Below, piece by piece: positions 23,164-26,054 of a stretch of 26,491 nucleotides of DNA. Source of the DNA: Alphaproteobacteria bacterium. GTDB taxonomy: Bacteria > Pseudomonadota > Alphaproteobacteria > WRDZ01. The translations under genes were made by a program, and so were the position numbers. The stretch covers positions 1 through 26,491 of the forward strand of contig WRDZ01000001.1 of the NCBI GenBank assembly GCA_009779595.1, written 5' to 3'. Below the pieces are notes generated by a model that searched no databases, was not told the DNA's origin, and was given only the letters and a program-made list of their open reading frames with translations. Position 1 is the first letter of the stretch, and every line of letters begins with the position of its first letter.

Positions 23164-23703
23164 CTACAGGGTGTATTCCCAGCCCGGCTGCCACTTGAAC
23201 GGCCTGGCCACCAGGTCCTTAAGCAGGGCTCCGCTGACAAAATGCTCGATGCCGTACTGCGTGGCGCGGTGGCCTATTATCAGGACCTTTTTGCCGTCAT
23301 AGTCCCGGCGCAAATCATGCAGGACTTCGCCCACCCTTCTGGCGGCACCGGCATAGCTTTCGCCGCCCGGGAATGGAGTGTCGACCCTTAAGGCCTTCTG
23401 TTCGTCCACCTCTTTCATCGGGAACCGGGTATAGTCGCCGTAATCGCACTCGCGCAGGCGCTTGTCCCTTATGATGGGCACGTCAATCCCGGCAAAGGCT
23501 ATTTCCGCGGATTTATAGCTGCGCTGAAGGTCGCTGCAGAAGACGGCAGCATATCCTTTATCCCGGCGCCTTTGCCCCAACTGCCCGGCCTGTTCGACGC
23601 CAAGCGGGGAAAGCTGCACATCGTACCAGCCGGAAGCCAGCTGTGGTTTTGCCTCATTGTCCAGCGTTGTGTTGTGTGATTCAAATGTCAGTTCTACGGC
23701 CAT
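23164..23703 (-). CDS. Histidine phosphatase (phosphoglycerate mutase-like) family protein
   Basis: FESHNTT.DN (variant RHG), SDLQRS, RLRECDYG, IIGHRA; SD AAGGAGG. Confidence 0.9.
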   Translation of the reverse strand: MAVELTFESHNTTLDNEAKPQLASGWYDVQLSPLGVEQAGQLGQRRRDKGYAAVFCSDLQRSYKSAEIAFAGIDVPIIRDKRLRECDYGDYTRFPMKEVDEQKALRVDTPFPGGESYAGAARRVGEVLHDLRRDYDGKKVLIIGHRATQYGIEHFVSGALLKDLVARPFKWQPGWEYTL

Positions 23704-23727
23704 GGCTTCCTCCTTGAAGGTAAGGGT

Positions 23728-23756
23728 TTTATAGCATTAACTGCCGTAATTTGCAA
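23728..23756 (-). promoter_or_regulatory. Sigma70-type promoter TTGCAA-N17-TATAAA (extended -10 TGC)
   Basis: Read on the minus strand, upstream of the phosphatase gene. Confidence 0.7.
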
Positions 23757-23788
23757 GGGGATTCAGGCATTATAACGATAGCAGAGGC

Positions 23789-24319
23789 CTATTTCCTTTC
23801 GTACAGGCCTGTTATTTCCGTTTCTTTCACCGCGCGGAGCCGGATTGCCTGGTGGACCTGGTAGGGGGTCATGCCGGCCGGCAGTTCGATTTTTTCGACG
23901 TCCAGGGCATACAGTATGAAATGGTAATGGTGGGGGCCGCTGCCCTTTGGGGGGCACGGCCCGTTGTATCCGGGCTTGCCGAAATCGGTCGGAAGCTCGC
24001 GCGCGGGCAAGGCGAATTTCGCGCCCTTTGCCACGCCGGCCACTGTCACGGGGATATCGGCCACCAGCCAGTGGTACCACCCGTGCGGGTGCGGGGCGTC
24101 GGGGTCGTGGACTATCAGCGCCAGGCTTTTCGCGCCCGCCGGCACGCCCGCGAACCGCAGGTCGGGCGAGATGTTTTCGCCGCCGCAGTCGTGATAGACC
24201 TGCTGGGCGGACATCGGCTGTTTGTCCTGCACGGCCGTGCTTGAAATTTCCAGAGCCGCCGCTGGGACCGCAGTCATGATAAGGACTCCCGCCAATATGG
24301 TTGCCGCAATCTTTTCCAT
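23789..24319 (-). CDS. YbhB/YbcL family (PEBP, Raf-kinase-inhibitor-like) protein with signal peptide
   Basis: CGGENISP.L, DPDAP..GWYHW, GYNGPCPPKG.GPHHY.F..YALD. Confidence 0.93.
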   Translation of the reverse strand: MEKIAATILAGVLIMTAVPAAALEISSTAVQDKQPMSAQQVYHDCGGENISPDLRFAGVPAGAKSLALIVHDPDAPHPHGWYHWLVADIPVTVAGVAKGAKFALPARELPTDFGKPGYNGPCPPKGSGPHHYHFILYALDVEKIELPAGMTPYQVHQAIRLRAVKETEITGLYERK

Positions 24320-24511: not shown

Positions 24512-25771
24512 TTACAAAAATTCGGCATCCCCCATGAAGGGCCGGATAGCTTTGGGTATCCTGACCCTGGCGTCCCTGGTCTGGTGGTTTTCCAGCAGCG
24601 CCACGAAAATGCGCGGCGTGGCCAGCGCCGTGTTGTTCAGCGTATGCACGAACTTGACCTTGCCGCCCAAATTTTCGCGGTAACGGGTGTTGGTGCGCCG
24701 CGCCTGCCAGTCGTGCAGGGTCGAGCAGCTGTGCGTTTCTCCGTACTTCTGCAAAGCCGGGCGCCAGCATTCGATATCGTTCATGCGTACCTTGCCAGCG
24801 CCCATGTCGCCGGTGCAGCATTCGACCACGCGGTAAGGCAACTCAAGGCCTGCCAGGATTTCCTCGGCGCCGGCCAGCAGGAACGCATGCCATTTGGCCG
24901 ACTCTTCCGGGTCGTTCCTGCAGATGACGAATTGCTCGACCTTGTTGAACTGGTGGACGCGGTAAAGCCCGCGCGCGTCCCTGCCGGCCGACCCGGCTTC
25001 GCGGCGGAAGCACGGGCTGAACCCGGCATAGAGTATGGGCAGCCGGGCCTCGGTCAAGATTTCGCCGCAATGCAGGCTGTTCAAGACTATTTCGCAGGTC
25101 CCGCTTAGGTACTGGCCGTCCTTGGGCAGGAAATACATGTTTTCCTTGTCGCCGGGAAAATGGCCCGAGCCGAAGAACGCGTCCTCCATCGCAAGCGACG
25201 GCACGCTTATCGTGGTAAAGCCTTTTTGGGCCAGCTTGTCCAGGGCGTATTGCAGAAGGGCGAACTCGTACCTTAGCAGGCTGCCTTTAAGCGCGAAAGT
25301 CCTTGTGCCGCAGACATTCGTGATTTTGCCGAACTCGCCCCAGTTATTGCGCTGGATAAGGTCGACGTGGTCCAGGGGTTCGAAGCCGAAATCGGGCTTT
25401 TTGCCGACTTGCCGCAGCACCGTGTTATCCGCATCGGTCAGCCCGATTGGAGCGTTCGGCGCGGGAATCTGCGGCGTCAAGGCCATCATTTCGGCCAAGG
25501 CAAGTTCCGTGTCCTTCAGCTTTTTGTTGATTTTACCCTGCCGCTCCCCAAGCAGCCTGGCCTTTTCCTTCAGCGGCGCCTTGTCCGCGGCGGCCTTGAT
25601 TTCAAGCGTCAGGCGGTTTTTTTCGGTGGCCATATCCTGGCCGCGCTGCCTAAGGGCGGCAAGCTCTTTGTCGGCCTTAAGCAAGGCGTTCAGGTCAAGG
25701 GCTATACCCTTGTTCTTGATGGCCTCTTTTACGATTCCGGGGTTTTCCCGGATGAATTTGATGTCAAGCAT
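24512..25771 (-). CDS. serS: Seryl-tRNA synthetase
   Basis: MLDIKFIREN, coiled-coil arm, FRREAGSAGRD.RGLYRVHQFNKVEQF, ETHSCS, HTLNNTA; SD AGGAG. Confidence 0.98.
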   Translation of the reverse strand: MLDIKFIRENPGIVKEAIKNKGIALDLNALLKADKELAALRQRGQDMATEKNRLTLEIKAAADKAPLKEKARLLGERQGKINKKLKDTELALAEMMALTPQIPAPNAPIGLTDADNTVLRQVGKKPDFGFEPLDHVDLIQRNNWGEFGKITNVCGTRTFALKGSLLRYEFALLQYALDKLAQKGFTTISVPSLAMEDAFFGSGHFPGDKENMYFLPKDGQYLSGTCEIVLNSLHCGEILTEARLPILYAGFSPCFRREAGSAGRDARGLYRVHQFNKVEQFVICRNDPEESAKWHAFLLAGAEEILAGLELPYRVVECCTGDMGAGKVRMNDIECWRPALQKYGETHSCSTLHDWQARRTNTRYRENLGGKVKFVHTLNNTALATPRIFVALLENHQTRDARVRIPKAIRPFMGDAEFL

Positions 25772-25813
25772 TGCGTGTCTCCTGATGAAGTTACAATCTA
25801 TACGATTTTTCGT

Positions 25814-25864
25814 GAGAAATGCCCGAGAACGGGCGCAAGAATCCTACACCCCGGACGGGGAGGA
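25814..25864 (-). promoter_or_regulatory. Candidate attenuator hairpins in the serS leader
   Basis: 1:2 is TCCT-CCCC/GGGG-AGGA; 2:3 is CGGG(G)TGTAGG/CTTGCGCCCG; 3:4 is GCCCG-TTCT-CGGGC followed by ATTTCTC. Confidence 0.5.
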
Positions 25865-25903
25865 CTTGGAAGAGACAGCGATGTTAAAAAATGCCTTCAA
25901 CAT
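25844..25903 (-). CDS. Candidate serS leader peptide MLKAFFNIAVSSKSSPSGV (19 aa, 5 Ser in 7 codons)
   Basis: ATG TTG AAG GCA TTT TTT AAC ATC GCT GTC TCT TCC AAG TCC TCC CCG TCC GGG GTG TAG, starting 9 nt after the -10. Confidence 0.65.
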   Translation of the reverse strand: MLKAFFNIAVSSKSSPSGV

Positions 25904-25912
25904 AATAGATAT

Positions 25913-25941
25913 ATCTTACCACAGTTCCTGACACAATGCAA
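25913..25941 (-). promoter_or_regulatory. Sigma70-type serS promoter TTGCAT-N17-TAAGAT
   Basis: Hexamers at 25941-25936 and 25918-25913. Confidence 0.7.
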
Positions 25942-25977
25942 GTTGAAACTGGATTTTGCCAACAGCATAAGAAGATA

Positions 25978-26054
25978 TGGTGGGTCCGGAGGGATTTGAA
26001 CCCCCGACCAGAGCGTTATGAGCGCCCTGCTCTAACCAACTGAGCTACAGACCC
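25978..26054 (-). tRNA. tRNA-Ile2 (CAU anticodon, lysidine-modified, reads AUA); 77 nt with encoded CCA
   Basis: GGGTCTG TAGCTCAGTTGGTTAGAGC AGGGCG CTCATAA CGCTCT GGTC GGGGG TTCAAAT CCCTC CGGACCC ACCA. The GGGYCY acceptor stem and GCTCATAAC context fit Ile2, not Met. Confidence 0.9.

Follow-up and report, generated by a model that had tools for sequence, protein, structure and literature searches.

What does a 19-codon open reading frame (ORF) rich in serine codons do a short distance upstream of serS, the gene encoding seryl-tRNA synthetase? The question is raised by the 26,491-nucleotide contig WRDZ01000001.1 of an alphaproteobacterial metagenome-assembled genome (MAG; GCA_009779595.1), the whole of which is referred to here as the window. 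Here serS lies on the minus strand behind a short ORF that an initial annotation, made from the sequence alone, had proposed to be a serine-sensing leader that controls serS by switching between alternative RNA hairpins in the manner of the trp and his attenuators. Comparison with related genomes leads us to consider it likely that this leader ORF senses Ser-tRNA supply and controls serS.

Outside the Firmicutes, control of aminoacyl-tRNA synthetase (aaRS) genes is known for few cases, namely the attenuation of Escherichia coli pheST, an established aaRS attenuator, and the E. coli thrS operator. A literature search of incomplete coverage found no description of a serS leader peptide, as the initial annotation had supposed, and no serS control element described in Proteobacteria. 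T-box riboswitches and known leader families were rejected as candidates, since Rfam gave no match within the leader at E <= 10 and none at gathering score in seven related loci; the annotation's remark that Firmicutes use a T-box for serS is not applicable, the organism being an alphaproteobacterium.

A serine-codon ORF upstream of serS

The elements described for this locus, TTGCAT-N17-TAAGAT followed after 9 nt by an ATG and a 19-codon ORF, are all present on the minus strand, as are the five Ser codons among codons 11-17 and a stop codon 72 nt upstream of the serS ATG (25771):

25936..25941, minus strand: -35-like hexamer TTGCAT of the leader promoter, read from the sequence
25913..25918, minus strand: -10-like hexamer TAAGAT, after a 17-nt spacer from TTGCAT and 9 nt ahead of the leader ATG
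25844..25903, minus strand: leader ORF MLKAFFNIAVSSKSSPSGV, 19 codons plus TAG (25846-25844)
25853..25873, minus strand: control codons 11-17, TCT TCC AAG TCC TCC CCG TCC, five of the seven being Ser
24512..25771, minus strand: serS, seryl-tRNA synthetase, 419 aa (Pfam Seryl_tRNA_N and tRNA-synt_2b)

Genome-wide, Ser accounts for 5.6% of codons, compared with five of seven in this run, and all five of the Ser control codons are UCY, decoded by tRNA-Ser(GGA). The whole leader folds more stably than shuffled versions of itself (z = -2.6). Within the window there is no Shine-Dalgarno (SD) sequence between TAAGAT and the leader ATG (25903-25901). A simple consensus promoter scan left the leader promoter unflagged (7/12 matches); a TTGCAT/TTGCAA/TTGATT-N17-TATAAT layout is found upstream of the homologous ORF in nearly all relatives. 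The -10 box lies 9 nt from the ATG in the window, 7 nt in the three related leaders L031, L032 and L286 introduced below, 9-10 nt in the ‘Candidatus Enterousia’ order and 6 nt in the thrS counterpart carried by the window's own genome. Since the promoter is thus conserved 6-10 nt ahead of the ATG, the leader ORF is predicted to be effectively leaderless or near-leaderless. In Alphaproteobacteria many mRNAs are leaderless and these are translated efficiently, and a small translated coding sequence precedes trpS in Caulobacter (PMC4117421).

Conservation of the leader ORF ahead of serS

Examination of the regions upstream of serS in relatives revealed the same Ser-rich short ORF, with its Ser run, a GC hairpin (P1) and a stop codon 60-100 nt ahead of serS, in 47 distinct leaders. 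These span at least four deep lineages: the window's own clade, two clades known from metagenomes, and an order of gut Alphaproteobacteria, ‘Ca. Enterousia’. Homologous ORFs occupy the same location on the metagenomic contigs with the two nearest SerS relatives, L031 (MFNAIFNIVVSSKSSASAV; SerS 74% identical to that of the window) and L032 (MFMKKNIVNFSKSSPSGV; SerS 71% identical), and are likewise found in L286 (MFIRHVTFFASFISSPFGE; further clade, SerS 60% identical) and L288 (MQVILTSRLFSSAGARK; further clade, SerS 59% identical). In the Enterousia order, whose genomes are AT-rich and about 0.9 Mb in size and whose SerS is ~46% identical, the leader is widespread, with the consensus M..F.FFS.SSSP[LF]G[EV]. 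It is mainly because of this conservation upstream of serS that we do not regard the ORF as a product of chance.

Across 43 distinct leaders, Ser is found at the anchor codon in 100% of cases (by construction) and at the four codons upstream of it in 95, 60, 35 and 76%. Ser is retained through AGT/TCT/TCA/TCG/TCC changes, and at one control position 21 leaders have AGT and 11 have TCN, an interchange that therefore indicates that selection acts on the decoded amino acid rather than on the RNA itself. Among homologues the peptide varies in its N-terminal half, and its C-terminus shifts whenever the hairpin covaries (PSG to ASA, AMRG); the codon run is the sole conserved coding feature, and no conserved nascent-peptide arrest motif was found among the leaders.

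We then measured how specifically this architecture is linked to serS by scanning 151 Enterousia-order genomes for a strict pattern consisting of a Ser codon, the P1 hairpin and a stop, using a reversed pattern as the control. The strict pattern gave 32 matches in 31 of the 151 genomes, every one of them 90-110 nt ahead of serS, at each of the two serS copies in the case of genome G126, and the reversed pattern gave none in the same genomes. Family members can be defined by a -10 box 6-10 nt before the ATG, a cognate codon run, a CCCC-N3-6-GGGG hairpin whose 5' arm consists of the last control codon and the codon after it, a stop codon in or just after this hairpin, and a class II aaRS gene 60-105 nt downstream; the window has every item of this definition of a serS/thrS leaderless leader family. 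Taken together, these comparisons indicate that the Ser-codon leader ORF is real and conserved and that it belongs specifically to serS.

The distribution of the leader is patchy, because SerS relatives at 57-61% identity (P0005, P0008, P0010, P0012 and L113) have no leader at the corresponding position. Nor was one found in GTDB class relatives, a set of 40 genomes in which SerS is at most 40% identical; one of them, G039, is unpublished and enters into no other result.

The window SerS itself is at most 40% identical to same-class SerS, yet 55-61% identical to SerS from Bacteriovoracaceae, some alphaproteobacterial MAGs and others, which suggests a distinct, horizontally spread SerS subtype common to the leader-bearing lineages. 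On L031 the region ~300 nt upstream of the serS leader (L031:1192-2600) contains a phage-type integrase together with the 3' fragment of a tRNA and, after that, a terminator, so an integrated element borders the leader locus.

A threonine-coded counterpart ahead of thrS

In all four Enterousia-order genomes that could be read at this position, thrS is preceded by an equivalent of the serS module in which six or seven Thr codons replace the Ser run; the ORF (for example MNLFKSFFTTTTTTPLGV) is leaderless and ends in a CCCC-GUUG-GGGG hairpin. The window's own genome possesses such a twin outside the window, where MNKNKVQPLPAFIATITTP precedes thrS (genome G000, contig C79 = L298; ORF 1328-1387, thrS ATG 1456) and the stop codon falls in the loop of a CCCC-GUAA-GGGG hairpin whose stem runs directly into UUUUC. 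A generic scan for short ORFs with homo-amino-acid runs was too noisy at 58% GC, and two structured scans of the MAG were used instead, one returning serS alone and the other serS and thrS; the leader architecture is thus found ahead of a long ORF at exactly two sites in the MAG. The serS and thrS leaders share the hairpin, differing in its outer pair, which is U-A (UCC...GA) in serS leaders and A-U (ACC...GU) in thrS leaders, and they differ in the codon run, and specificity would therefore reside in the codon run. Because a Thr-coded module precedes thrS, in the window's genome too, the codons appear to be tied to the cognate synthetase. We read this swap of cognate codons as a signature of ribosome-mediated sensing, and the proposal that a Ser-sensing leader ORF controls serS is accordingly well supported on comparative grounds, by the conserved frame and Ser run, the exclusive linkage to serS and the Thr twin.

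The swap also speaks against an operator bound by the synthetase and against a peptide with a function of its own. If P1 were an operator bound by seryl-tRNA synthetase, mimicking tRNA as the thrS operator of E. coli does, the ORF would be incidental. P1 is indeed compact, a short GC stem capped by a loop of 3-4 nt; its sequence hardly varies, and it superficially resembles the long variable arm of tRNA-Ser. Against this, conservation extends to where the ORF starts and stops, to its reading frame and to the fixed spacing between it and the -10 box. Since serS and thrS leaders share the P1 core and loops and differ only in codons, we rejected this candidate, which we regard as extremely improbable.

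A second possibility is that the ORF is translated without sensing Ser, either as a constitutive enhancer that opens the serS ribosome-binding site (RBS) by coupling or as the coding sequence of a functional small protein. Any ribosome crossing the ORF would briefly open the helix with the RBS described below, and there is a published proposal that an upstream ORF can enhance translation of the gene behind it (PMC4833913). What makes this very improbable in our judgement is that the Ser run is retained through synonymous and AGU/UCN changes in a peptide with a variable N-terminal half, that the run becomes Thr before thrS, and that the C-terminus changes along with hairpin covariation.

A possible further member was noted on L031 upstream of proS (L031:5616-5760, minus strand), where a -10 box lies 6 nt before a short ORF, MFVQAHTFYFRP, that ends in Pro-stop and contains UACUUC, complementary to the proS SD sequence GGAGUA. 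This ORF has a single Pro codon and is at best a tentative candidate for a third, proline member of the family.

Predicted pairing of the leader ORF with the serS ribosome-binding site

How might such an ORF act on serS? Minimum free energy (MFE) folds of the leader bring together the following parts, to which the gene upstream of the leader is added for context:

25870..25877, minus strand: anti-SD segment UGUCUCUU, leader ORF codons 9-12, pairing with AGGAGACA in the MFE fold
25776..25783, minus strand: serS SD region, AGGAGACA
25890..25903, minus strand: 5' end of the leader ORF (AUGUU..AGGCAUU), pairing with the serS start-codon region
25761..25772, minus strand: serS start-codon region A-AUG-CUUGACAU, pairing with the 5' end of the leader ORF
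25978..26054, minus strand: tRNA-Met(CAT) gene, immediately 5' of the leader and served by its own promoter (26096-26068); context only

For four leaders (window, L031, L032 and L286), the MFE structure has the ORF base-paired to the serS SD sequence as well as to the serS AUG. This long-range helix also buries the leader's own 5' AUG. In the window the full duplex between the ORF and the translation initiation region (TIR) reaches -19 to -20 kcal/mol, versus -9.7 kcal/mol for a shuffled TIR (p ~0.005), and duplexes of the window type as a whole lie at -17 to -20 kcal/mol versus ~-9 kcal/mol for shuffled targets (z = -3.3 to -5.6). We also compared the probability that the TIR (positions -16 to +3) is unpaired with the value obtained after shuffling the upstream sequence. 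It was 0.25 versus 0.42 in the window, 0.15 in L031 and 0.24 in L032, giving an overall range for window-type leaders of 0.15-0.25 versus 0.40-0.42 with upstream RNA shuffled.

Furthermore, the anti-SD:SD helix covaries, as UGUCUCUU/AGGAGACA, GUCUCC/GGAGAC, AUUUCUCC/GGAGAAAU and UUAUCUCCU/AGGAGAUAA, with cognate duplexes of -12.0 to -12.9 kcal/mol. Holding GGAG fixed and shuffling the flanks gave p = 0.03, 0.11 (L031), 0.01 and 0.012, with a Fisher combination of ~3e-4. The thrS twin of the window's genome shows the equivalent arrangement: UAUCACC (Ile-Thr codons) pairs with GGUGAUA (SD) and GUUCAUC with GAUGAAC (thrS start), the complementarity of the ORF to the SD and AUG amounting to -17.3 kcal/mol (p = 0.01). 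When a ribosome was represented in constrained folds, as a test of geometry, placing its A site at Ser codons 11-15 freed the serS SD, and placing it at the stop codon allowed the SD helix to re-form.

Because the leader ORF sequesters the serS SD and AUG, translational control fits better than a terminator switch. The initial annotation had named it as a fallback. In the folds the SD and AUG are sequestered in the window, L031, L032, L286 and the thrS twin. From these folding models we judge the chances about even that RBS unmasking is the main output in the window's genome.

Several points weigh against RBS unmasking. In the constrained folds, a stall at the last Ser codon (17) leaves the serS SD masked. 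UCY Ser codons are inherently complementary to the GGA/AGA of an SD sequence, which inflates the pairing, and the flank-shuffle test answers this only partly, with p = 0.11 for L031. The anti-SD:SD helix draws its support from just four independent window-type leaders and one thrS twin. Leaders of the Enterousia type and L288, which have the ORF and P1 in common with the window, have no pairing between ORF and TIR (z ~0), and their serS RBS is open (0.53 versus 0.48). P1, the most conserved part of the leader, has no assigned job in the RBS-unmasking model. Finally, the terminator scan found no terminator between the tRNA-Met(CAT) gene and the leader promoter (25942-25977), and read-through from the tRNA-Met promoter could yield transcripts in which the ORF is not leaderless. 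RBS unmasking as an output of the whole family was rejected, since both pairing and sequestration are absent in Enterousia-type leaders.

The output of Enterousia-type leaders could instead be termination, Rho or stall-dependent mRNA stabilisation. The last of these has a counterpart that might apply more generally, in which the same sensor has a different output: a ribosome stalled near the 5' end would shield the mRNA from 5'-end-dependent decay, as in the stabilisation of erm mRNA, or act by another post-transcriptional route. With an ORF of 17-19 codons at the very 5' end, one stalled ribosome and the queue behind it would cover that end, and the idea would also suit Enterousia-type leaders, which have neither a terminator nor RBS sequestration. 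What it does not account for is the anti-SD:SD helix that covaries in window-type leaders, and we give the idea only a slim chance.

Hairpins P1 and P2 and transcription termination

The initial annotation's own mechanism relied on three mutually exclusive helices. All three fold in the window: 1:2 (25864-25857 with 25852-25842) at -11.1 kcal/mol, 2:3 (25853-25843 with 25839-25830) at -12.9 kcal/mol and 3:4 (25834-25821) at -9.9 kcal/mol. The parts concerned are:

25842..25864, minus strand: hairpin P1 (1:2), UCCUCCCC-GUCC-GGGG-UGU-AGGA, -11.1 kcal/mol
25830..25839, minus strand: segment 3, CUUGCGCCCG, which pairs with the 3' arm of P1 to form the proposed 2:3 antiterminator
25814..25834, minus strand: hairpin P2 (3:4), GCCCG-UUCU-CGGGC with the tail AUUUCUC, weakly terminator-like, -9.9 kcal/mol

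The 5' arm of P1 is formed by the last Ser codon and the Pro codon, and its 3' arm bears the stop codon. Its CCCC/GGGG core is present in 40-42 of 43 leaders, and RNAalifold on 39 Enterousia-type leaders recovered P1 alone. Counting over the alignment, the core is nearly invariant, with one in-register compensatory pair; compensatory variants include CCGC/GCGG (L031, L288) and UCCGC/GCGGA (L267). The case for P1 thus rests on conservation plus a few out-of-register compensatory variants.

Could the leader nevertheless act by transcription attenuation of the trp/his/pheST type, alone or on top of RBS unmasking, with a stall favouring 2:3 and read-through, and a ribosome at the stop favouring 3:4 and termination? 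E. coli pheST offers a precedent for an aaRS operon. Within the window the switch works on paper, since all three helices are available and masking segment 1 moves the MFE from 3:4 to 2:3 (-12.9 versus -9.9 kcal/mol). In L031 the P2 counterpart, GCCC-GCUU-GGGC, is followed by UUUUUAC, with five U residues, and candidate trpS and leuS attenuators have been published in Streptomyces (PMC1262725). The details fit less well. Folding under ribosome constraints gave 2:3 in the window only for stalls at codons 11-12, with 3:4 returning for stalls at codons 14-17. The 2:3 helix is competitive in the window only, 3:4 persisting in L031 and L032 with segment 1 masked. As the initial annotation had itself cautioned, the U-tract is weak: the tails are weak or absent (AUUUCUC in the window; CAAAUCUC after UGCC-UAAAA-UGGCA in L032), the L031 stem has 4 pairs only, and a terminator scan called no terminator-like site in the window, L031 or L032 leaders. 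Leaders of the Enterousia type have no antiterminator and no GC hairpin with a U-tract. Because 3:4 persists in L031 and L032, codons 14-17 restore 3:4 and the tails are weak, a trp-style 2:3/3:4 switch is not supported by the sequences as a conserved output, even though it works in folds of the window, and attenuation of this type seems unlikely to us.

A different termination-based scheme would have P1, or a Rho site downstream of it, end the leader transcript unless a ribosome on the Ser run blocks P1 or the loading of Rho. In its favour, no other structure is conserved across all leaders as P1 is; in the window's genome, the thrS twin has its stop in the P1 loop and a stem followed by UUUUC; the open RBS of Enterousia-type leaders calls for an output at the level of transcription or stability; and published work describes Streptomyces ThrL as a leaderless ORF that has a single hairpin and lacks a U-tract (PMC8079986). 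The window P1, however, is followed by UGUAGGAUUCUU, which is not a U-tract, and the timing would be poor. Judging from the geometry, a ribosome at the stop would also melt P1, so that replete and starved cells would both block it, and were polymerase to run ahead of the ribosome, neither state could act. On this timing logic we judged P1 unlikely as a starvation-relieved terminator, and regard the scheme as a whole as quite improbable.

Many Enterousia-type leaders (L201, L202, L261, L262, L257, L292-L296 and others) carry a second promoter-like box between the stop codon and serS or thrS. It reads TTGCGA, TTGCGG or TTTACA, N16-17 and TAnnAT (TATAAT-like), lies 30-45 nt before the synthetase ATG, and overlaps a covarying palindrome or hairpin at the P2 position (GCGAA..UUCGC, GCGG..CCGC, GUGC..GCAC). 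It may act as a hairpin in the RNA, as an operator in the DNA, or as the second of two tandem promoters.

A model for the control of serS

For the window's genome, the favoured reading is that a ribosome on the leader ORF decides whether the serS RBS is open. Transcription would start at or within ~2 nt of the leader AUG, so that a ribosome loads onto the nascent leaderless ORF. In naked RNA, codons 9-12 (UGUCUCUU) would pair with the SD (AGGAGACA) and the first codons with the serS AUG region, closing serS to translation. If charged tRNA-Ser is scarce, the ribosome would dwell at Ser codons 11-15 with its footprint over the anti-SD segment, keeping the serS site open so that more seryl-tRNA synthetase is made; if Ser-tRNA is plentiful, the ribosome would reach the stop and depart, and the long-range helix would close. 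The decision would probably be made co-transcriptionally, by the first ribosome. Translation of the leader ORF, stalling on it, and the direction and size of the response are in this model inferred.

The hairpins may have subsidiary roles. P2 may contribute some transcription termination in the window's genome. P1 might hold back a ribosome that is decoding the Ser run, or help to shape the fold: from its position, a ribosome would be expected to unwind P1 while decoding the control codons, perhaps lengthening the dwell time.

Tentatively, this can be extended to the proposal that reduced-genome gut Alphaproteobacteria carry modular, leaderless codon-cassette leaders for class II aaRS genes (Ser-serS, Thr-thrS and perhaps Pro-stop-proS). 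In such leaders, the codons before an invariant GC hairpin would set specificity, the control codons of the window lineage would double as anti-SD, and a single pioneer ribosome would decide whether the RBS is open or locked.

Relation to known control systems

Like pheM-pheST and the trpL, hisL, thrL and leuL leaders, the serS leader is a short ORF with a run of cognate codons, and as with pheST the regulated gene encodes an aaRS. As in pheM-pheST and the classical attenuators, alternative hairpins overlap the end of the ORF. It differs from classical attenuators in that it has no convincing intrinsic terminator and an antiterminator that is not conserved in its closest relatives, in that its ORF is leaderless and its control codons pair directly with the SD and AUG, and in that the amino acid is serine.

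Further parallels come from actinobacteria. RNA-seq-based annotation of Streptomyces lividans lists leaderless leader ORFs before leuS, trpS, alaS and thrS, and these (LeuL2-leuS, TrpL2-trpS, AlaL-alaS and ThrL-thrS) place a leaderless ORF of 12-22 codons with cognate codons before an aaRS gene, as here (PMC8079986). The S. lividans ThrL (...ETTPGF...), with one hairpin and no U-tract, resembles the TTP-hairpin thrS twin found here (PMC8079986). That study lists no serS leader and describes no SD-sequestering helix, and it concerns another phylum; its mechanisms are predicted, as are ours (PMC8079986). In the LEU element upstream of leuA in Actinobacteria, the run of Leu codons in an ORF has been proposed to pair with the SD and forms the base stem of a compact structure, a similar arrangement to the one described here (PMC1262725). 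That element differs in having an unrelated pseudoknot and in preceding a biosynthetic gene rather than an aaRS gene, and published mutagenesis argued against codon-dependent control there (PMC1262725).

The locking of an SD and AUG by leader sequence, to be opened by an arrested ribosome, is the logic of ermC, cat, cmlA and secM-secA, and is proposed likewise here. Arrest in erm, cat and secM depends on a drug or a nascent-chain motif, whereas in the serS leader it would result from a shortage of charged tRNA at the codon run, and unlike those systems the serS leader peptide is not conserved outside the Ser run. T-box riboswitches, the usual means of serS control in Firmicutes, regulate serS according to the charging of tRNA-Ser, as proposed for this leader; they differ in binding uncharged tRNA directly, with no need for translation.

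The serS and thrS leaders provide testable, sequence-defined candidates for control elements in a large, uncultured, host-associated group of Alphaproteobacteria from termite, ruminant and human gut with genomes of ~1 Mb, and in the Ser and Thr twins nature has, in effect, already carried out a swap of specificity. Judging from the window type, a leader that senses starvation may be able to act directly on an RBS with no terminator involved. If so, amino-acid starvation would be sensed through translational instead of transcriptional attenuation, the rules by which attenuators are searched for would be broadened, and the leader would constitute a compact, portable sensor part for charged-tRNA levels.

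Genomic context

The window is the largest contig of the MAG (862 kb, 64% complete, 58% GC). Its organism has no close GTDB relative, the nearest being placed in the ‘same class’, and identical copies of the locus come from termite-gut metagenomes (DNA runs). LolCE, RNase D and AspRS were identified, and the named sequences that match the AspRS best are alphaproteobacterial, which places the organism in that class. A PEBP-family gene and a histidine-phosphatase-family gene lie 3' of serS on the same strand (window 23164-24319) and are retained in the identical metagenomic copies. Elsewhere in the genome, outside the window, a second serS-like fragment with a 107-aa open frame (G000:C14:10601-10900) is 46% identical to SerS residues 319-418, and may be what is left of a pseudogene, a second copy truncated by the assembly or contamination of the bin.

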